Virus record (IMG/VR): IMGVR_UViG_3300014039_000028 | Span: 1 to 64,000 of that record | Strand: one strand, 5' to 3' | Source of the DNA: a virus | Lineage: Duplodnaviria > Caudoviricetes | Length of the DNA stretch: 64,000 nucleotides | In this document: in pieces, positions 1,163 to 58,506 of the stretch | How the letters are laid out: every line of letters starts with the position of its first letter | Position numbering within the stretch: position 1 is the first letter of the stretch | Notes under the pieces: generated by a model | Databases searched by the model: none | What the model was told of the DNA's origin: nothing | What the model saw: only the letters and a program-made list of their open reading frames with translations | Position numbers and translations under genes: made by a program

Positions 1163-2964
1163 GGAAGGACTACGTTTACAGCCGCAGAAGCGGCGGTTTC
1201 ATCAAAAAGCAGACCCGACAGGGTGTCAACTATGATGACTTCACCGACGAATGGTGGGCGCTTCTAATATCGTTTTTCCGGTATTATCCAGATTATCTGG
1301 AAGATATCACAGAGAATCCGAACTGCAAATATCACAACAGTCTGATAGGCCGCATAATGCGGCGAGCAATGGTACGTTACCGCATGGTGGACATCATAGG
1401 TTCGCGCGGAACGACCAAAACCAGCGCCGTGATAAGTTCGGCAAGCAATAAAGGCATCTTATACCCCGGCGAAGTCACAGCGTATTACGGCCCTTCCAAT
1501 AAGCAGACAGCAAAGATCGCGTCGGAGGCGTGGCACGAATATCAGTACAACTACCCGTATTTGGCGAAGCACTGGAACGTTAACAATGATTCGTCGGACA
1601 CCTTCAAGATAAGCACGGCAGAGGGCAGCGCAGTCGAAGTCGCAATAGACCGAGGACGCAATACCCACTGTGTCATAGGCGAAGAGTGTGGTCAGGAGGA
1701 CGGCTCAGTTCCATTCAACTGGTCAGACTTCAATCAGGTGGTCAAGGCAACAAACCGTTTGCAGCACCTGATTGATGGCGTTCCGGATCCGTCTCACCAA
1801 GACCTTGCCGAGATATACATCACGTCGGCAAGCTCGAAAGAGAACCCCGCCTACAGCGTTTACATCAAGGCGCGCAAGAAAATGGCTGATGGTGAAAGCG
1901 CTTTTGCTTGCGCGATCCCTTGGCAAGTTCCCGTTTTGTGTCATGTAAGGCCGTTTGAATATTACGACGGACTGAGAGACACGCTGACGAAAGAAGAGTT
2001 CATGCGTGAGTGCGAATCCAAATGCACCGGCAGCGTGGACAATCCCCTCCTTCGAGATCAGTATGTGCAGGACGCTAAGACGCTGACCATTATGGAGGAC
2101 AGGCATTGCGGCGACCCGAACGTGCGGTACTACATAGGCTACGACGTCTCGTACCGACAGAGAAATGGCAATGCAATGTGCGCCGAGGTAGTGTTGAAAA
2201 CCTACGAGCAGCGCAGGAGTACCAGTTTTAAGAAAGACTGTGTTTATTTGACCGACCTTCCCCCGCTTGATGCGGAGCGGCAGGCGCGGAGAATAAAGAA
2301 CCGTTGGGCGCAGTACCGTCTTGAGGGAGCGCCTGAACCAATCATCGTTATTGACTCATGGCAGTTCGGTGAGGCTGTTGTGCAGCAGCTCCATAGAGAC
2401 CTTGGAGATGGGCTTCCGCCCCTCTGTACGGTCAACAATGACGACCGATACCTCGATTTGGTTCAGAAAAACGCAAAACCGTGTATTTATTCACTTTATG
2501 CAACACCGGGGCGCAGTGGCGCAGACCCCAACATCGACATGCTCGACTACCTCACACGAGAGTTTGAACATGGCAATGTGGGATTGCTAATAACCAACGT
2601 ACACGAGGGTACACGGGCTTATAAAATGGCACACAACATCAAGGATGATACGCAGGATGTCAAAATCCAGCATCCGTACATCAAGACCAAGGAACTGTGC
2701 GACCAAATAGCTAACCTGCGCCGAAAGAAAACTGGCAGCGGTTGGACGCAGGAAGAGATAAACAAGCACATCAACAAGGACTTGTGGTCGGCAATGATGT
2801 ACGCCGCGAGGCCGATAAAGCTTGACGAGGATGCTTTCGTAGCGTCGCAGAACCGGCGCAAGAGTAGCTATCAGGAAGCGGCTGAACATCTCGACAGTGA
2901 GATAACATACGCGCCGGTGAGGACGCGGAGCGTCAGACGCCTTGGCCGAGGAGCAATAGTTTGA
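1159..2964 (+). CDS. terL: terminase large subunit
   Basis: 601 aa; Walker A-like GSRGTTKT, Walker B-like VIGEE, nuclease motif YIGYDVS; lies before portal. Confidence 0.85.
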   Translation: MRKDYVYSRRSGGFIKKQTRQGVNYDDFTDEWWALLISFFRYYPDYLEDITENPNCKYHNSLIGRIMRRAMVRYRMVDIIGSRGTTKTSAVISSASNKGILYPGEVTAYYGPSNKQTAKIASEAWHEYQYNYPYLAKHWNVNNDSSDTFKISTAEGSAVEVAIDRGRNTHCVIGEECGQEDGSVPFNWSDFNQVVKATNRLQHLIDGVPDPSHQDLAEIYITSASSKENPAYSVYIKARKKMADGESAFACAIPWQVPVLCHVRPFEYYDGLRDTLTKEEFMRECESKCTGSVDNPLLRDQYVQDAKTLTIMEDRHCGDPNVRYYIGYDVSYRQRNGNAMCAEVVLKTYEQRRSTSFKKDCVYLTDLPPLDAERQARRIKNRWAQYRLEGAPEPIIVIDSWQFGEAVVQQLHRDLGDGLPPLCTVNNDDRYLDLVQKNAKPCIYSLYATPGRSGADPNIDMLDYLTREFEHGNVGLLITNVHEGTRAYKMAHNIKDDTQDVKIQHPYIKTKELCDQIANLRRKKTGSGWTQEEINKHINKDLWSAMMYAARPIKLDEDAFVASQNRRKSSYQEAAEHLDSEITYAPVRTRSVRRLGRGAIV

Positions 2965-3338
2965 TGGATATTACGAAAAACAAGCTGTGGGCGCTTCCCA
3001 CGACTGATAAGAACCTGAAATTGCAGGAAACATTCAGCCATTTCTACTCTGACGCAGACCATATACTGATAATTTCTTCCGATAAGCCAAAGGGCGCGAT
3101 AGAGGTCACGCCTGACCTCGAATACCTCCTGGCACAGTCCGATTGGCTGTGGATATGGAGCGAAAGTAACGCGGTCCGATGCGAGGAAGAACTAAAATAC
3201 CGCAAAGAGCTTGACGATTACATGAAGGACTTTGAGAAGCGCTTCTTCGCAGAGCTCGATAAAATGCAGAAAGGTGGAGCGGACATTGGAAATACAGCAG
3301 ATGGGGCCGATGGAAGCTCCGGCAGCGACGAGCTATAA
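2961..3338 (+). CDS. hypothetical protein
   Basis: coupled to terL; protein-like composition. Confidence 0.6.
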   Translation: MMDITKNKLWALPTTDKNLKLQETFSHFYSDADHILIISSDKPKGAIEVTPDLEYLLAQSDWLWIWSESNAVRCEEELKYRKELDDYMKDFEKRFFAELDKMQKGGADIGNTADGADGSSGSDEL

Positions 3339-5013
3339 AGCACTCGGAGAGATATTGCAGAAAGCCAACAGCATGTACGGCGGCATGGGAATGAGCGACT
3401 ATTTCACCGCTTTTTCCGCTGCCGGTGGGCTTGGATTTCTGAACAACTGGCCGCAGATACAGAATACCCGCGTAAAGGGCATAAACACACGCCCTGCCGA
3501 GTTCACCAAAGATCAGATAAGCACGATGGTGCAAAACCCGGATGGCAGCGAAAAGAGCCTGAGAGCGGTTTCTGCGTCACTTGCGTACAGCACCAAGACT
3601 TATGATCTGATCCTCAAGACCTATCCCGATACGCTTACCTATTCATGGTACGTATATCCCACGTACACCGATGCAGAGGTAAGCAAAAAGGATAAATTGC
3701 GCGACATGCTGCTTGCGCAGCGGCTCGTTCAGACTGTGGGGGCGAAAGAAAAAGCCCATGAGCTGTGTGGACTGTGCATGAAATACGGCAAAGTGTTTGT
3801 TACCCCGCGTATTTCGGTCGACAAGAGCCACAATAAGATAAACTACGCTTTCTTGCAGGAGCTCCCTATGGACTGGTGCAAGATCGTAGGTTACAACAAC
3901 GGACCCGGCAAGTACACAGTGGCATTTAACCTTTTCTACTTCATGCGACCGGGCAACGACTGGCGTCAATTCGGAGACCTTTTCGAGCCGTACATGAGGG
4001 TTTTCGATGAGGTAGTTGTAAAAACGCCGGGAAAGTATGTTTACAACACCATCGACACGGACAAGTTCAAAGCCATTCACGCGAATGAGACAATAGGAAA
4101 TCCCGAATGGGTGGCCGTAGGACGACAGTATTTCTACTGGGTAACGCTCCCCGCAGACAGGGTATTCACCATAGAAGTGGACGATACCACTCCCCTTGTT
4201 ATCCCGCCGAACACCGGCATGTTCGTGTCGCTTACGCAGATACCTAATTACGAGGCGGCACAGCTCGAAATAATCCTCAATCCGTTGACGTCTGTGCTGA
4301 CCGGCTCGCTTGAAACCTATGATCCGAAGAGCGCAACAGATAACGACCCCATAAGGGTCTCAGACACGACGAGGAAGCTTTTCGAGTATCTGTGGTATCA
4401 GATGCTCAACAAGAACAACACAAGCGGCATAGGGCTTTACCTTGCGCCTGCGAAGGACTTGAAGCTTCAGACGATTTCTGACACCGTGGCAAACACGGAC
4501 ATAAGCTCGACGGCGTATTCAGACCAAATTCTCAAAGCTGGTCTCCCCTCTCTCATCCCCACCACAAACGACCCAAAGGTCGGCGTGGCGCAGCTTTCCG
4601 CTTGGCTTGCGGCTTCTTATGCCAAGTTCATATATGGCAGCATGGAGCGGATTATGAACTGGATGATAGAGAGCCTGAACTGCAAGACCCCGATGCGCTT
4701 CAAAATGTTCGGCGACATCTTCAAGATAGATGACGAAATTGAGAACGCACGCAAGGGCATGACCAACGGCTGTCTCACCGATACGCTCAAATATGATGCG
4801 CTGTCCGGACACACGATACTTGACGATATTGCAATATCTGATTTTGTGGACGAAAGCGGCGTGATGGATAAGCGCAGACCGCTTGTGACATCGTATTCAG
4901 CCAAGCAGGATACCAGCGGACTTCCGCCGCAGGCAAAAAAGGAAATCTCCGAGGACGGGCGACCGGAAGAACGCGGCAGCATAAACAGCGAGACGCATGA
5001 GGAAGAGATATGA
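3286..5013 (+). CDS. portal protein
   Basis: about 575 aa after terL; TTG start at 3286 with GGAG RBS; size and synteny. Confidence 0.7.
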   Translation: MEIQQMGPMEAPAATSYKALGEILQKANSMYGGMGMSDYFTAFSAAGGLGFLNNWPQIQNTRVKGINTRPAEFTKDQISTMVQNPDGSEKSLRAVSASLAYSTKTYDLILKTYPDTLTYSWYVYPTYTDAEVSKKDKLRDMLLAQRLVQTVGAKEKAHELCGLCMKYGKVFVTPRISVDKSHNKINYAFLQELPMDWCKIVGYNNGPGKYTVAFNLFYFMRPGNDWRQFGDLFEPYMRVFDEVVVKTPGKYVYNTIDTDKFKAIHANETIGNPEWVAVGRQYFYWVTLPADRVFTIEVDDTTPLVIPPNTGMFVSLTQIPNYEAAQLEIILNPLTSVLTGSLETYDPKSATDNDPIRVSDTTRKLFEYLWYQMLNKNNTSGIGLYLAPAKDLKLQTISDTVANTDISSTAYSDQILKAGLPSLIPTTNDPKVGVAQLSAWLAASYAKFIYGSMERIMNWMIESLNCKTPMRFKMFGDIFKIDDEIENARKGMTNGCLTDTLKYDALSGHTILDDIAISDFVDESGVMDKRRPLVTSYSAKQDTSGLPPQAKKEISEDGRPEERGSINSETHEEEI

Positions 5014-53993: not shown

Positions 53994-54524
53994 TTACACT
54001 TCATCTCCCCATGCGTCCCAGCCGGGGAATCGTTCTCTCGCAAATATCTCTATGCGCGGCTCATAGCTCACCAGTTCTATCATGCGGCGCATTTCTTCGG
54101 GCTTGCGGCTGTGCACCGTTTTGGGTGCATAGAATCCCGTTTTTCCCTGACAGCGTTTACCTTCGGGAGAAACTTTGTAAGGCAAGCGCTTTTTCGTCGT
54201 GGCAAATATGCAATGTTCAGTCAGTCCTCTGTAATACTGTCCCAAGCCCTGCTGGTTTTTCATCCACGTTATCGTTGTCACATACTCGAATCCCCACGCC
54301 TTCACGCATTCAATGGCGGCGGGTAGATAATTATTGGTAGCCCAGCAGTACAGATGGCACCCGTCAGGGGCTGCAAGTTGCATGACCGGGAGCGCCTTGA
54401 TCTCGGCAACAGACATCAAACTGTAGTGCTTGTCCGCTCCGCGCTTGATTTTGCCGCCTCCCCGCTCTGGCCACGGCGGGTCTATGTAGATTGTGCGGTA
54501 TTTGTCACTTGGAAAGTCGTTCAT
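53994..54524 (-). CDS. MT-A70-like adenine methyltransferase
   Basis: TIYIDPPW, HYSLM, LYCWATN, WGFEY, HSRKP, EIFAR. Confidence 0.9.
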   Translation of the reverse strand: MNDFPSDKYRTIYIDPPWPERGGGKIKRGADKHYSLMSVAEIKALPVMQLAAPDGCHLYCWATNNYLPAAIECVKAWGFEYVTTITWMKNQQGLGQYYRGLTEHCIFATTKKRLPYKVSPEGKRCQGKTGFYAPKTVHSRKPEEMRRMIELVSYEPRIEIFARERFPGWDAWGDEV

Positions 54525-54646
54525 ACGCCCTCCTTGATTTTGAAAAACTGACAGCCGCGGCCTTTATCGCAGTCGTTGGCGCAGAACCGGCATGGATTCG
54601 CATCGAGCACCAACAGTTTGACGATTCGGCACAGCCGTTCTTTCAT
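54521..54646 (-). CDS. small Cys-rich protein, 41 aa
   Basis: read manually; ATGA overlaps at both ends. Confidence 0.45.
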   Translation of the reverse strand: MKERLCRIVKLLVLDANPCRFCANDCDKGRGCQFFKIKEGV

Positions 54647-54933
54647 GTTGAACTGTCCTCCTCAGTTTTAGGGTACAAATCTTCCAAATCCCCCGCGAGA
54701 CGGTGATACTCGCTGTTTTCCTCGATTTCAGCCTTGAGACGGTTCGCCAAATCCTCAATTCGCGTCTGTTGTTTGAGCAGTGTAGTCACGCACTCATCGA
54801 GATATTGCGCAGCGGCAAGATAGCCGCACTTGCCTATCGCTCTTCCATCCTTGCCATCTCTAAGAGCTTCCTCTTTAAGGTCAGCAAGGAACCTCACCAG
54901 AGTTGCCATACGATTTGGTGCATAATTACTCAC
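54643..54933 (-). CDS. hypothetical protein
   Basis: coupled in operon. Confidence 0.55.
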   Translation of the reverse strand: MSNYAPNRMATLVRFLADLKEEALRDGKDGRAIGKCGYLAAAQYLDECVTTLLKQQTRIEDLANRLKAEIEENSEYHRLAGDLEDLYPKTEEDSST

Positions 54934-55247
54934 TTTTCATTTCCCTCCTCATAATTGTCTTTCAAGTATCTGTTTCGTCTGCAACAGGAGCATTTCTGGT
55001 GCTTTTGCTTATTCTTGCAAGTACCGCAACCGCCGATAGTAATACTGTCTGCGAGAAGCGGATTGTTCGCTATGAAATTCGCTTCCAGTAGCTGGATTGT
55101 GTTCAGAAGAGCGCTGTCCATATACGGACTGTCATTCGTCATTCGGTTAAGGCGGCACTTACCTAAAAAATCCAGCAAGTGGTCAAAATTGATATACCTG
55201 ACTGCGTTGCCGTATAACTTCACGCGCTCCTTCTCTTTCCTTGTCAT
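54930..55247 (-). CDS. hypothetical protein with C-terminal Cys cluster
   Basis: coupled in operon. Confidence 0.55.
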   Translation of the reverse strand: MTRKEKERVKLYGNAVRYINFDHLLDFLGKCRLNRMTNDSPYMDSALLNTIQLLEANFIANNPLLADSITIGGCGTCKNKQKHQKCSCCRRNRYLKDNYEEGNEK

Positions 55248-57511
55248 TAGCGCACCACGGCTCCTCTCAAAAATTCATCTAAGTCACCGGATATACCGGC
55301 ATCCTCGTCTCCGAAATGTCTCTTTACGACAGCAATCGGGAACTGCTCAATTTCGCTTGCCCAACGGCAGTTTTCCGCGCCGTGGATTTCAGCCCAGCAC
55401 AGCGGAAACCCGCCTATACCGTCGAACAGTGAACCAAGCGTCGCGTCCGCCGGTAGATACTCGCTTATGCGGCGCAGCAGCCATTTCCAGAACGGGAGAG
55501 CGATGCTGTTGCCAAGGGCTTTATATTTAGGCGCATCAGATTCTTTATGTACGCGTCCTTTCTCATCTGTCCACTCACCTATGTCAACCCATCCGTCCGG
55601 GAATCCCTGAAGTCTGGTACATTCCAGCGGGGTCAGTCTACGCACTGCGCCTGACTGTCGGCATATATTGTTGAGATTGAGACTTGAGCCACCAGATTCT
55701 TTAGCTTGAAGCGTACCGTTCACATCGCCGTTCTCCGTAAAATTTCTGCAATCTACAGCAGCTGAAAGAACATAAGTTGTTGAATCCTCGCGAAACGAGT
55801 CCTTTCCTGAGGCGCGTAAGGTGTGTGCTACGAGCATATCGTTATAAGCGTCCTGCCCGTTGTAGCTTCCAGCGTGTGCTCCCGGTGAGAGTGTTCCGGT
55901 TACCTGTTGATATGTAAGTGGGACTTGATTTCCGCCAGTTCCCATCCTTGCTTGTAGGCTCGGTACAACCTCGCCGCACTCTCTTATGACATCATTCGCA
56001 TGGCTCATATCCAATATTGCAGGAACTTGATTCGTGCCGCTTGAAACCGCTGATAATGTAGGTGAGGTCTCTTCTGCATAACCTATACTGCCCGCTTTCG
56101 CACCTTGTCCAGACTTAAACGCTGCCACTATATGCTTGTCTGCCACGGTGATGGTCGGCGCAGGATCACCATCCTTGCCGATTCCAAGACCGTTCCCGCT
56201 ACCGTCGTTCTTGCGGGTATCTCCTCCGCCCTTGAATCGCGTCGCTTTGTCGTTTATTGGGATGACTACCGATTCCGCGCCGTGCTGTTGGGTGCTTGCG
56301 ACTGCTGGATAAGTGCCTGCTTCAACTGTTCCGGCAGGTCTTTCCCTCTGCTTTCCGCTCTCCGGAGTATCCCCTGACAGGCTGCACGGCTCAAATAATA
56401 TTTCGTGGGCGGTGCTTCCTCCAAAATCTGCGACAACCGAGATTCTACTGTTGGATAGTTGAACGTTCCAAGTCCGTAGAATGTCATGCCCGACCAGTTG
56501 AGCAAGGCTCTTTCCATTTGCGGATTCCTCATTCATATACCCCCTTATCACGGTTAAAACAGATTTTGCCCAGCCGAAGAAGTTCGGCGCATCGGGATTC
56601 GTCTCCATCGCACAGTTTAGATAAGCTCCAGTGACATTTAGCGTGCGCAGCAGGGTTTGGAAACAAGTGCAGATTCGACGGATCGTTATTTCGCTTGTTG
56701 CAGTCGATGTGATGAACTCGTTCTGAAGAAGTGAGTGCGCGTCCAAGGTGTTTCTCAACCACGCTCCTATGGATATATTTTCTTCTGCAATTTTCGATGA
56801 CGTACTCGTACCCTCTGTCATCTGCGCGAACAAGTCCATCTGGATTTCGCCAACTCTTGAACCCAAGTTTTCTTGCTCTTTTGGATAATTCGCTTCCATC
56901 TCGTCCAAGAAGCGTTGCCACCTCTTTATGGTCTCTTCCTTTTGAAGCGAGAATAATTTTATCCTCTTCTGGAGTCCATCTTCGGATAGCCACTTTGCGC
57001 GGCACTCCGATTTTTTCGGCGCGATGCCTAATCGCGCACACGCTTCGACCCAGTCTATCAGCAATATCTCTGTGAGGCATTGAAGCATAATGCTGTCTGA
57101 TATAATTGTCCTCTTGCTGAGTAAATAGTGGATGTTTGCCCATACTATCCCAATTCTCCTTCTTCTTTGCGGAACGCCGCAATACTGCGCATCGTGAATC
57201 TGCGGGTCTGGAATAAAGCCAATCTCAGTCATCATATCCAAGGCAGCTACAAAATCCTCTCCATTATTGCTACTCAACATTCCGGGCACATTCTCAAACA
57301 CCACAAATTTAGGGTACTTTCCTCTGGTCGATGAATACATCTCGCTGATTACCCTAACAGCTTCAATGTATAGACCAGAACGATTCCCTGCTAGTCCCAT
57401 ACGCCTCCCAGCGATACTCAAATCCTGACAAGGCGAACCAAAGGTGATGACATCTACCGGCTCTATTTCAGCGCCGTTTATCTTCGTTATATCTCCTAAA
57501 TGTCTCACCAA
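55247..57511 (-). CDS. C5-cytosine DNA methyltransferase, circularly permuted, with a long insertion
   Basis: GDIT(III), GSPCQDLS(IV), ENVPG(VI), PQRRRR(VIII), RRLTPLEC.RLQGFP(IX), LGNS(X), then SLFDGIGGF(I) and WASEI(II) at the C-terminus. Confidence 0.9.
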   Translation of the reverse strand: MVRHLGDITKINGAEIEPVDVITFGSPCQDLSIAGRRMGLAGNRSGLYIEAVRVISEMYSSTRGKYPKFVVFENVPGMLSSNNGEDFVAALDMMTEIGFIPDPQIHDAQYCGVPQRRRRIGIVWANIHYLLSKRTIISDSIMLQCLTEILLIDWVEACARLGIAPKKSECRAKWLSEDGLQKRIKLFSLQKEETIKRWQRFLDEMEANYPKEQENLGSRVGEIQMDLFAQMTEGTSTSSKIAEENISIGAWLRNTLDAHSLLQNEFITSTATSEITIRRICTCFQTLLRTLNVTGAYLNCAMETNPDAPNFFGWAKSVLTVIRGYMNEESANGKSLAQLVGHDILRTWNVQLSNSRISVVADFGGSTAHEILFEPCSLSGDTPESGKQRERPAGTVEAGTYPAVASTQQHGAESVVIPINDKATRFKGGGDTRKNDGSGNGLGIGKDGDPAPTITVADKHIVAAFKSGQGAKAGSIGYAEETSPTLSAVSSGTNQVPAILDMSHANDVIRECGEVVPSLQARMGTGGNQVPLTYQQVTGTLSPGAHAGSYNGQDAYNDMLVAHTLRASGKDSFREDSTTYVLSAAVDCRNFTENGDVNGTLQAKESGGSSLNLNNICRQSGAVRRLTPLECTRLQGFPDGWVDIGEWTDEKGRVHKESDAPKYKALGNSIALPFWKWLLRRISEYLPADATLGSLFDGIGGFPLCWAEIHGAENCRWASEIEQFPIAVVKRHFGDEDAGISGDLDEFLRGAVVR
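56266..56532 (-). CDS. nested M.EcoHK31I-beta-like peptide (alternate frame of the MTase)
   Basis: WSGMTFYG...ESRLSQILEE.PPTKYYLSRAACQGILRRAESRGKDLPEQLKQAL; ATGA-coupled to the HNH stop. Confidence 0.7.
   Translation of the reverse strand: MRNPQMERALLNWSGMTFYGLGTFNYPTVESRLSQILEEAPPTKYYLSRAACQGILRRAESRGKDLPEQLKQALIQQSQAPNSTARNR
56529..57143 (-). CDS. nested HNH endonuclease with Myb/SANT-like repeats (third frame of the MTase)
   Basis: FTQQED..I / WTPEED..I repeats; YIHRSVVEKHLGR.L...ERVHHIDCNKRNNDPSNL; RBS AAGGAG. Confidence 0.85.
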   Translation of the reverse strand: MGKHPLFTQQEDNYIRQHYASMPHRDIADRLGRSVCAIRHRAEKIGVPRKVAIRRWTPEEDKIILASKGRDHKEVATLLGRDGSELSKRARKLGFKSWRNPDGLVRADDRGYEYVIENCRRKYIHRSVVEKHLGRALTSSERVHHIDCNKRNNDPSNLHLFPNPAAHAKCHWSLSKLCDGDESRCAELLRLGKICFNRDKGVYE

Positions 57512-57659
57512 AAACCACCTCCTTCATGCCAGCGCGAGTGCGTCTGGCTCTTTGGTGCTGGGATGGTAGCACCCGTGTCAAGCGCAAACGAACCAGATGG
57601 CGCAGAACTGCGACGTTGTTTTGTGCAAGTATCACAAAATTTCAAGCTTAATGAACGTA

Positions 57660-57698
57660 GAAAAGCAGCCCTTTCAATTTGAAAAGGCTGTTTTTTTC
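57660..57698. terminator. hairpin with T-tracts on both strands at the strand switch
   Basis: AAAAGCAGCCCTTTCAA-T-TTGAAAAGGCTGTTTTTTT. Confidence 0.5.
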
Positions 57699-57796
57699 GT
57701 ATACCTATACAAATTTTGATGTTTTGGCGATTCCCAAGCGCAAAAATGCGCTTGACACGCCGTGTATCATCCTTGCACCGAAAAAGAAAGAAGCGG

Positions 57797-58009
57797 ATGC
57801 CTATGCAGGAGGCCGAGCTTAAAGCCGCGGCAGTCGGCATACTCACATATCTGGCGATTGCAAATGAGGAGACCACGCGGCACAGCGGAGAGGCGGCGGA
57901 AATTATGGAGTTTGACGCGCCATACAATCCATCCGCGTTCAAACTGGCGATGCAGTATCTCGCGCGGATGGACATGGAAGAAACGGAGGTGGAGTTATGG
58001 AAGCGGTAA
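57797..58009 (+). CDS. hypothetical protein
   Basis: 3' part of ORF 57716..58009; start uncertain. Confidence 0.4.
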   Translation: MPMQEAELKAAAVGILTYLAIANEETTRHSGEAAEIMEFDAPYNPSAFKLAMQYLARMDMEETEVELWKR

Positions 58010-58506
58010 TAATACTGCTTATCTGTACGGTTATCCCTGTAACAGTTGGTTGCGCGATGCACATCAAATTTGCGCACGAACGGTGGGTTTCTTATTTAGA
58101 GCAGAAATCAAGTTACAAACATATAACGGTCTCTCCTGAAATTTTCAAAACAATGCTTTACACCCTCTCCTATGAAATGAGCGCTTTGCCTTACGGCATA
58201 ATGTGGCATAGACCTACATCACGACGCCATGGGAGCGAGCCTATCTTGGTGTACGGTAGAAATCGGCTCGAACAAGAGCAGATGAACCTTGCTCTGACTG
58301 TATACCTCGATAAGCAAGCAAAAGCGCGGGAGAGACGCAAAGAACTCGCCAACGATGCAACTACTGATTCGTTAAAGCAAGTCCAAGACGACCTCCAACG
58401 TATCATCGACGGCAATCTCCGCGCCGCGCAGGAGGCCGCGCGGAAAAATCAAGAGATTATGGAGCGTCTATCAGTAACAACCGCTACACACGGAGGCGCA
58501 CCATGA
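57997..58506 (+). CDS. membrane-anchored coiled-coil protein
   Basis: GGAGG RBS; N-terminal TM. Confidence 0.55.
   Translation: MEAVIILLICTVIPVTVGCAMHIKFAHERWVSYLEQKSSYKHITVSPEIFKTMLYTLSYEMSALPYGIMWHRPTSRRHGSEPILVYGRNRLEQEQMNLALTVYLDKQAKARERRKELANDATTDSLKQVQDDLQRIIDGNLRAAQEAARKNQEIMERLSVTTATHGGAP

Follow-up and report, generated by a model that had tools for sequence, protein, structure and literature searches.

An HNH endonuclease gene hidden off-frame in the open frame of a phage C5 cytosine methyltransferase, a widespread variant of the ShiLan-type arrangement

Phage group I introns typically carry HNH genes. RNA splicing takes out such introns along with their HNH homing endonuclease genes (e.g., I-HmuI in phage SPO1), and protein splicing takes out inteins; introns and inteins are the textbook routes by which a homing nuclease resides in an essential motif while the host gene survives. 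Free-standing homing endonuclease genes can also split their hosts, as mobE does in nrdA of Aeromonas phage Aeh1 and as is found for mobA with genes 39/60 of T4.

A third route, without splicing, is that of the hidden HNH endonuclease, which has been known only since 2023-2025 and from a few actinophage N6/N4 methylases. Its described form is the ShiLan domain, an HNH that lies hidden off-frame in DNA methylases of mycobacteriophages (Gosselin et al. 2023, PMC9957025; Arsenault, Gosselin and Gogarten 2025, PMC11855218). The methylase ORF of Pacc40 gp60 likewise stays open over a second HNH-like ORF, unrelated to the first and also in another frame, so that the strategy recurs (PMC11855218). 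In the C5 methyltransferase M.EcoHK31I, which has alpha and beta polypeptides, the small second polypeptide is coded off-frame within the gene (PMC2836561). An earlier note on the DNA analyzed here knew of no description of an HNH gene nested in a methyltransferase frame that stays open. This proved to be mistaken, as the arrangement was published, as the ShiLan domain or as a "hidden HNH endonuclease", for methylases of another class and an HNH of a different subfamily.

The window, a stretch of 64,000 nucleotides of phage DNA, has on its minus strand a C5 cytosine methyltransferase (MTase) ORF of 754 aa (55247..57511; alpha frame), which PF00145 (DNA_methylase) matches in two stretches (Pfam, E 9e-42). 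As read from its translation, the alpha MTase is circularly permuted, in the order motifs III-IV-VI-VIII, insert, target-recognition region, motifs IX-X, and motifs I-II. Motif I is also C-terminal in 57 of 80 MTase relatives. Relative to insert-less alleles, 711 nt are inserted at 56441..57151 (minus strand). These correspond to 237 aa in the alpha frame (MTase residues 121-357 in the alignment to L156, the closest insert-less allele), in agreement with the earlier estimate of about 230 aa after motif VIII. The junctions are taken from alignment with L156, L157, and L004, relative to which the insert sits directly after motif VIII; its position can be shifted by one Arg-Ile repeat. Across the 711 nt no stop interrupts the alpha frame, which remains one continuous ORF, and a gene-in-pieces layout, with the host gene as two separately translated ORFs, is not found at this locus. 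In the insert-less L156 and L157, the closest relatives, two overlapping ORFs (191 aa and 510 aa) encode the enzyme. Among four DNA runs, the whole inserted allele is present in X1, and no contig joining across the insert was seen. Short contigs of X3 and X4 match over motif VIII alone (57160-57194), beyond which they seem, as a weak indication, to go on as an insert-less methylase.

In the alpha frame, the insert has no Pfam family and no PHROG match. AlphaFold2 models it as all-helical with pLDDT of ~40-56 in the 754-aa protein (20-sequence alignment; mean pLDDT 44.9), and the insert alone (15 sequences) gives a mean pLDDT of 48.8 and no confident fold. By these models, both too uncertain for a comparison with structure libraries, the alpha-frame insert is probably a helical segment of 237 aa. 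The earlier note had said that it reads like off-frame text, but it is more than that, since its alpha-frame sequence is itself conserved among relatives (see below).

The HNH endonuclease gene lies at 56529..57143 on the same strand, in the +2 frame relative to the MTase. It encodes 204 aa from an ATG that is 9 nt into the insert; an alternative TTG start would give an ORF of 217 aa (56529..57182). That a complete HNH gene is nested off-frame in the open MTase frame, as was noticed from the sequence, is borne out: both ORFs are listed on the minus strand, and HNH_3 (PF13392) matches the nested ORF with E 2e-10 (Pfam; 40.4 bits against a gathering cut-off of 24.8). Its N-terminal part is a tandem helix-turn-helix-like repeat and its C-terminal part an HNH_3 core, whose catalytic His/Asn columns are invariant in an alignment (A1) of relatives of 28-46% identity. 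For the two Myb-like repeats of the earlier description, Pfam gives only the sub-threshold matches Myb_DNA-binding (E 0.007) and Sigma70_r4_2 (E 0.002), and the firmer match of the N-terminal half is to phrog_323, "transcriptional regulator, D5-like" (PHROGs, E 1e-20). A PDB sequence search with the HNH protein gives no significant match. Cluster J mycobacteriophages have HNH genes at this same site, and to these the protein is 46% identical.

This locus and the ShiLan domain have several features in common. Both are inserts of ~200 aa that interrupt a phage methylase at a conserved site and are absent from close homologues. In both, the methylase frame has no stop, the HNH gene is in the third (+2) frame and starts a few nucleotides into the insert, intron and intein features are absent, the insert is predicted with low confidence as a helical loop, and a short duplication of host sequence is found at the insert border. 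The ShiLan type, however, is hosted by N6_N4_Mtase (PF01555; Murica gp102, Mantra gp64) and the window type by a C5 enzyme (PF00145). The ShiLan HNH is zinc-finger-flanked, while that of the window combines a tandem helix-turn-helix with HNH_3, and only the HNH core is common to the two. HNH proteins of the Murica gp102/Mantra gp64 type match the window HNH over the core alone (24-31% of length), and the search with the window HNH did not retrieve the ShiLan-type HNH at E 1e-5. Judged by homology, the window element appears to lie outside the ShiLan family proper. For ShiLan, in which no ribosome-binding site was found, a leaderless GTG start is proposed (PMC11855218), whereas the window HNH starts at an ATG after a recoded Shine-Dalgarno sequence. 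Unlike ShiLan, the window cassette rebuilds a third overlapping ORF (beta), selection on both frames has been quantified for it, and its type is found in many bacterial phyla rather than only in actinophages. Pacc40 gp60 differs from the window locus in its insertion site, its helicase-methylase host, and its nuclease.

The other systems are more distant. With I-HmuI-type introns and inteins the window locus shares a selfish nuclease that sits in a phage gene at a strongly conserved catalytic motif, in an arrangement that would spare the host's function, but it has neither ribozyme nor Hint domain, its nuclease is coded off-frame, and it keeps the host frame open. As in the mobE and mobA cases, an HNH or GIY-YIG gene occupies a coding gene without intron or intein and host function is, here presumably, retained; there, however, the host becomes two ORFs whose products assemble, while the host ORF of the window is one continuous frame.

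Thirty other nested loci from ~20 distinct lineages are found by HNH-guided DNA searches (GC 0.37-0.68; HNH identity 28-46%). Their carriers are phages, MAGs of Verrucomicrobiota, Rhodocyclaceae, and Elusimicrobia, and cluster J mycobacteriophages. All of them carry the HNH gene past motif VIII of a C5 MTase, in the +2 frame (the host enzyme being Pfam-checked for three of the loci), and have no stop in the host frame along it. The earlier note had named stops in the MTase frame of most homologues as evidence against its reading; these are not found, as 30 of 30 loci are stop-free. The third frame of the nested loci is open for only 7-60 aa. In non-nested relatives of the HNH (L039, L238, L239, L242, L244, L245, L247, L248, L252, L289, and L291), the matching frame is open for at most 5-114 aa. 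Hosts of the insert include both permuted and standard-order MTases from very distant host phyla, and its distribution is patchy: the HNH is absent from all 80 of the closest IMG/VR relatives of the C-terminal part of the host gene (46-81% identity), implying a recent gain or loss on the window lineage. In most inserted loci the alpha frame takes in motifs IX and X without a break. Cluster J mycobacteriophages have their motif IX-X part in another frame, and the host frame of L030 and L241 comes to an end soon after the insert, so that the methylase of some carriers may be defective.

The open, conserved host frame is under selection. When the codons of the window HNH are permuted within the gene, 3.5 stops are expected in the MTase frame and none is observed (P(zero) 0.007). 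With the codon usage of the locus 7.4 are expected, and 0 of 1000 resamples are stop-free; the remaining frame of the gene has 15 stops. A naive estimate in the earlier note had also made an unselected open frame unlikely. Under synonymous resampling, 16 of 16 loci are stop-free against 2.3-11.4 expected stops, with P(zero stops) <=0.044 at each locus and often <0.001. Long alternative-frame ORFs are common in GC-rich DNA, and the two relatives found first are actinophage loci with GC of 0.58-0.65, as would suit an open frame that is a chance by-product of composition. That explanation is already refuted by these probabilities and by the comparison of nested with non-nested loci. The window HNH gene has a GC content of only 47%, loci with 36-43% GC are stop-free as well, the third frame has 8-25 stops, and non-nested relatives are not open.

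Selection is not limited to stops. At positions with the same HNH residue, wobble base identity is 0.61, against 0.38 in the non-overlapped MTase control (NTN codons being left out), and among the seven deepest lineages it is 0.55 against 0.35. The wobble positions of the HNH gene are constrained well beyond stop avoidance. Amino-acid identity in the alpha frame reaches 0.35, where synonymous permutation gives a null of 0.216 +/- 0.003; in the deep lineages it is 0.28 against 0.19. The sequence pairs in these statistics are phylogenetically non-independent.

The motif VIII codons of the MTase (57155..57169, minus strand) encode Gln and four Arg, all AGR, and contain the Shine-Dalgarno sequence of the HNH gene. 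AAGGAG is found at 57156-57161, within the codons AGA AGA AGG AGA, as the earlier note had read it, 12 nt before the HNH ATG (57143); the spacing is 8-9 nt in most relatives. Arg codons of the AGG or GGAG type are present at motif VIII in all inserted loci, GC-rich ones included. Among 82 insert-less relatives, by contrast, 87% of the motif VIII Arg codons are CGN, and GGAG occurs in none. The motif VIII Arg codons of inserted alleles are thus recoded from CGN to AGR, creating the HNH ribosome-binding site. This change should abolish the target of the nuclease itself as well. A short "inserted"-type motif VI-VIII linker is common to the window allele and L034 and sets them apart from their insert-less relatives (seven sequences compared), which suggests flank co-conversion.

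Downstream of the HNH gene is an 88-aa ORF, here called beta, in the +1 frame (56266..56532, minus strand). Its ATG overlaps the HNH stop (ATGA), and its own Shine-Dalgarno sequence, AAGGGGG, is inside the last HNH codons. Beta has no Pfam or PHROG family. It is conserved: it lies 3' of the HNH gene in all inserted loci, and of 80 insert-less relatives 64 have its motif in the +1 frame, as does phage Javan422; the motif matches 134 phage records. By frame layout this is an M.EcoHK31I-like arrangement, widespread in this MTase family; M.EcoHK31I has no nuclease insert, however, and the window alpha has its own motif IX. The 3' tail of the insert (56441..56532, minus strand) encodes a new N-terminus of beta (~30 aa). 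From the resemblance of the alpha- and beta-frame translations compared upstream and downstream of the insert, the tail is taken to be a diverged second copy of the motif VIII segment, and in the alpha frame it would be a decayed motif VIII look-alike. A programmed frameshift after motif VIII was considered as the source of the +1 motif and dropped, as the M.EcoHK31I-type alpha/beta precedent and separate start codons suffice.

The locus probably represents a mobile, hidden out-of-frame (ShiLan-like) HNH homing-endonuclease cassette in a phage C5 MTase, with the host frame kept open and no splicing. A cassette of this kind would have been inserted just after catalytic motif VIII and apparently is not removed at the RNA or protein level. 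Because its 711 nt are coded without an alpha-frame stop, the ribosome would read through and produce a single 754-aa methyltransferase, presumably active, with the extra 237-aa segment at the hinge between the catalytic and target-recognition domains. Breaks at this hinge of C5 enzymes are tolerated by natural and engineered enzymes. The HNH would be translated separately in the +2 frame from its own ATG and the recoded Shine-Dalgarno sequence, and the diverged target copy at the 3' end of the cassette would provide a new start for the +1 beta ORF, coupled to the HNH stop. The nuclease may cleave insert-less alleles at the conserved motif VIII DNA, with homing to follow. The earlier proposal that a homing-type HNH occupies its host gene without splicing, by way of an open frame, is supported by every comparative test run.

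An unrecognized self-splicing intron, or some other element excised at the RNA level with the HNH ORF as its cargo, would give a mature mRNA without the insert. Phage introns have such cargo, SEA-PHAGES annotators of the homologous locus in phage Schatzie were "unable to determine intron boundaries", and RNA structure could partly explain the synonymous-site constraint. An Rfam scan of window positions 54500-58500, however, gives no intron or relevant RNA family (no Intron_gpI at E up to 1), and a scan of 10 inserted loci gives no intron at E up to 0.1; neither has a group I/II match. The sole Rfam match in those scans is a chance lncRNA match (E 0.32). The HNH ORF takes up all but ~96 of the 711 insert nt, which leaves too little room for a ribozyme core. 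Splicing, moreover, makes no demand for a stop-free exon frame, whereas such a frame is found at every nested locus and is missing from free-standing relatives, and the analogous ShiLan element likewise lacks intron features (PMC11855218). We regard excision at the RNA level as highly improbable. An intein was considered as well, as the insert ends in Asn-Ser in one register, and was rejected: Pfam finds only DNA_methylase and no Hint/intein domain in the 754-aa ORF, Hint blocks are missing, the termini are unconserved among relatives, and the HNH is off-frame (+2). Selection for the open frame may also have another cause than a single-chain methylase, such as avoidance of polarity or mRNA decay affecting downstream genes or a separate C-terminal half, or a function of the alpha-frame peptide itself. 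The conservation of alpha-frame residues above the null would fit, and the two-ORF enzyme of L156 and L157 indicates that a single chain is not obligatory in this MTase family. Against this, the alpha frame mostly continues unbroken through motifs IX and X, as a single-chain enzyme needs, no start or Shine-Dalgarno sequence is noted in the window for a separate C-terminal half, and the insert is without a recognizable family or confident fold in that frame. Such a cause is very unlikely.

More weight, though still on the unlikely side, goes to the HNH being no longer mobile but a long-resident, domesticated partner of the MTase (e.g., a nuclease against competing phages or unmodified DNA), its dual coding being an old, vertically inherited overlap. 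HNH and host-MTase divergence are strongly correlated (r = 0.79; 105 pairs), as would be expected more from long vertical co-inheritance than from homing that is frequent and recent, so that the element may be largely resident or domesticated. The catalytic residues do not vary over 28-46% identity, purifying selection acts on both frames, and no near-identical HNH copies in divergent hosts are seen among the loci retrieved by the HNH searches. These points are opposed by the lack of the insert in the 80 closest host-gene relatives, by its presence in permuted and standard-order MTases of very distant host phyla, by a motif VIII flank recoded as expected for a cassette protecting its own allele, and by the linker shared with L034, which hints at co-conversion. 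A mobile cassette remains our preferred reading. It can be extended, doubtfully, to one in which all three forward frames of the ~0.7 kb cassette are coding and selected: the HNH in +2; in frame 0 a conserved helical module that is a working part of the MTase rather than a linker that is merely tolerated; and in +1 the beta N-terminus, derived from a duplicated and subfunctionalized target copy, with motif VIII recoded by the cassette as its own ribosome-binding site. If this were true, a selfish element would have evolved to repair both of the overlapping host genes that it interrupts.

The window locus is a distinct and widespread variant of the published hidden-HNH arrangement. Together with ~20 related lineages it brings the same solution to C5 cytosine methyltransferases across many bacterial phyla, with a host frame that is demonstrably selected in both its absence of stops and its amino-acid sequence. 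The element makes its own ribosome-binding site from catalytic Arg codons and restores an overlapping host ORF as well. Gene callers annotate such loci inconsistently, as one long methylase, as split methylases plus an HNH gene, or as an "intron", and nested nucleases are therefore easily missed. With ~600 nt of double coding and a short triple-coding stretch, these loci are a natural system for the evolution of overlapping genes.

The C5 cytosine DNA methylase ORF (754 aa) lies on the minus strand at 55247-57511 and matches Pfam PF00145 in two stretches (E 9e-42). Nested in it, on the same strand and in the +2 frame relative to the methyltransferase (MTase) frame, is an HNH ORF (56529-57182 with a TTG start, or 56529-57143 and 204 aa with an ATG start; HNH_3, PF13392, E 2e-10). 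In PHROGs, its N-terminal half has a strong match to the 'D5-like transcriptional regulator' family, and its C-terminal half matches many HNH families. An 88-aa ORF in the +1 frame (beta; 56266-56532, minus strand) has its own ATG, which overlaps the HNH stop as ATGA. The MTase is circularly permuted. It begins at motif III and proceeds as III-IV-VI-VIII, insert, target-recognition region, and IX-X, with motifs I-II closing the ORF. Because motif I is near the C-terminus in 57 of the 80 closest IMG/VR relatives, this permutation is a family trait, not an assembly artefact. An MT-A70 family adenine methyltransferase gene (53994-54524, minus strand; PF05063, E 3e-26) is found downstream, two small ORFs away; at least two DNA methyltransferases are therefore encoded side by side in this phage. 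A metagenome contig of 64,314 bp (L236) matches the window at 100% and provides minimal genome context past it.

In the closest insert-less alleles (L156, L157, and L004), motif VIII continues into the following strand without interruption. Compared with them, the window MTase has 237 extra residues (121-357), or 711 nt (56441-57151). The HNH ATG (57143) is 9 nt into this insert and the HNH stop is 88 nt short of its 3' end; only about 96 nt of the insert are outside the HNH ORF. Rfam E-value scans gave no matches in the window or in 10 inserted loci, and no Hint domain was found in the host frame by Pfam. If the element were spliced out, there would be no need for the exon frame to be open and conserved across it.

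The earlier note knew of no description of this arrangement, but one was already published, the ShiLan domain (PMC9957025, PMC11855218). This 202-aa stop-free insert in an actinophage methylase (PMC9957025) hides a 195-aa HNH in the third frame, lacks intron and intein features, and is predicted to form a loop (PMC11855218). 'Out-of-frame HNH endonuclease' is already a term in a genome announcement (PMC12613952). While the hosts at the two ShiLan loci checked are N6_N4 methylases, the window host is a C5 MTase, and the zinc-finger HNH of those two loci has only the core in common with the window HNH. The C5 methylase locus of cluster J mycobacteriophages belongs to the same family as the window, with 46% HNH identity, the same site, and the same frames; the cluster J paper does not mention it in its discussion of the phages. 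In mycobacteriophages Thibault, KashFlow, and Schatzie, the locus is annotated in three different ways: as split methylases with an HNH and a hypothetical protein, as a single 507-aa methylase spanning the HNH, and as a misc_feature ('unable to determine intron boundaries'). Motifs IX-X in these phages are in yet another frame relative to the N-terminal ORF.

Relatives were collected from IMG/VR, a one-genome-per-species collection, metagenomes, and GenBank phages using the HNH, not the methylase, as the query, so that the state of the host frame could not bias the test. Full-length HNH relatives are nested in a methylase at 30 loci (about 20 distinct lineages; GC 0.37-0.68; HNH identity 28-46%). 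At all of them the HNH is in the +2 frame, preceded by motifs IV, VI, and VIII and followed by IX and X; open stretches in the third frame are only 7-60 aa long. The three host ORFs checked are C5 methylases by Pfam. The nesting of an out-of-frame HNH in an open MTase frame, as described in the earlier note, is confirmed by the ORF listing, Pfam, and these 30 further loci; the check proposed there, for stops in the MTase frame of homologues, found zero across the entire HNH in every nested locus.

Chance as the origin of the open host frame is ruled out by the nested loci, by free-standing relatives, and by synonymous resampling. Where relatives of this HNH are free-standing, their +2 frame is not open (longest open stretch 5-114 aa). 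Sixteen HNH genes were resampled synonymously, either by permuting codons within the gene or by using the codon usage of the locus. The expected host-frame stops were 2.3-6.3 and 2.7-11.4, respectively, against zero observed (P <= 0.044 per locus), and the third frame has 8-25 stops. Three of the free-standing relatives (L238, L239, and L242; about 38% identity) are outside any methylase, have unrelated genes as neighbours, and carry an additional C-terminal extension of roughly 60-170 aa.

Selection on the host frame exceeds mere stop avoidance. HNH third positions are the second positions of the host frame, and their mean pairwise difference is 0.51, compared with 0.68 at third positions in the non-overlapped N-terminal part of the MTase. 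Given the same residue, and with NTN codons excluded, the wobble base is identical in 0.61 of the overlap versus 0.38 of the control (0.55 versus 0.35 for the seven deepest lineages). Host-frame amino-acid identity over the insert is 0.35 against a synonymous-permutation null of 0.216 +/- 0.003 (0.28 against 0.19 for deep pairs); sequence pairs are phylogenetically non-independent, making p-values rough, and the direction is consistent throughout. The insert, taken in the earlier note for off-frame text, is therefore conserved sequence in the host frame. AlphaFold2 predictions of its product are all-helical, with low confidence. At the sequence level, the contrast between nested and free-standing loci, the resampling, and the synonymous constraint support the interpretation that the host frame is kept open across a homing-type HNH without splicing.

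The beta ORF is part of the host gene family, not of the insert. Of 80 insert-less relatives, 64 have its motif in the +1 frame, as does Streptococcus phage Javan422, and the motif matches 134 phage records. Without the insert, the segment encoding the N-terminal end of beta overlaps that of motif VIII. Every inserted allele has a new beta ATG located 0-30 nt ahead of the HNH stop, and roughly the first 30 residues of the resulting ORF are similar to the lost beta N-terminus; the same 3' DNA read in the host frame is a decayed motif VIII look-alike. We infer that the 3' tail of the cassette arose by duplication of the target segment and has since diverged, in which case the upstream copy would retain motif VIII and the downstream copy beta. 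In L156 and L157 (around 2000-3700) the enzyme is split over two overlapping ORFs, one of 191 aa with motifs III-VIII and one of about 500 aa that lies in the +1 frame, opens with the beta motif, and continues through the target-recognition region and IX-X-I-II. Beta therefore exists either as a free-standing ORF or as a fusion with the C-terminal half, which is reminiscent of naturally split C5 enzymes. In Faecalibacterium phage FP_Toutatis (2495-3906), motifs III-VI are in frame with the beta motif, followed by a stop, and motif VIII and the remainder are in an overlapping ORF of another frame; either the phage has a further natural frame arrangement or the record contains a frameshift. The +1 ORF of the window resembles the layout of M.EcoHK31I, whose beta chain is encoded within the alpha gene in another frame (PMC2836561).

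The HNH Shine-Dalgarno sequence AAGGAG, correctly placed by the earlier note inside the motif VIII arginine codons, is at 57156-57161. In all inserted loci, also in GC-rich hosts, the last of these codons are of the AGG or AGA type and spell GGAG or AGGAG 8-12 nt upstream of the HNH ATG. Among 82 insert-less relatives, 87% of the motif VIII arginine codons are CGN and GGAG occurs in none. The cassette or a co-converted flank therefore recodes motif VIII into its own putative ribosome-binding site. This recoding also alters the presumed recognition sequence of the nuclease. Around the insertion point, insert-less relatives hardly vary in nucleotide sequence, likely because the stretch is read in two frames, and such invariance would make it a good homing target.

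The HNH is absent from all 80 closest relatives of the C-terminal part of the host gene, and the element is present in methylases of distant phyla, in permuted ones as well as in those with the standard motif order. Counting against mobility, HNH and host divergence are strongly correlated (r = 0.79); HNH transfers seem rare and long residence in the host gene is likely. The motif VI-VIII linker is short in the window (about 57170-57290, minus strand) and in another HNH-bearing MTase locus (L034), as in other HNH-bearing methylases; in insert-less relatives of these two it is longer by 22-40 residues (27 in most). This hints that the short linker may be a co-conversion tract that came with the cassette. 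A contig of public DNA sequencing run X1 holds the entire inserted allele; it differs from the window mainly in the 3' part of the MTase gene (55213-55598) and hardly at all in the HNH region, a mosaic pattern that suggests recombination within the gene. Short contigs of runs X3 and X4 from the same study match the window only at motif VIII (57160-57194) and beyond that stretch read like an insert-less methylase allele. The cassette and a potential natural target for it may occur together.

Judged from sequence, this variant differs from the known kind in the class of the host enzyme, the HNH architecture, a Shine-Dalgarno sequence derived from recoded catalytic codons, and a rebuilt third overlapping ORF. 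On this interpretation, an active MTase would be made by read-through translation of the insert, and the HNH would be able to home. For this HNH-in-C5-MTase variant, the analysis provides a wide phylogenetic spread and quantified selection on both frames.
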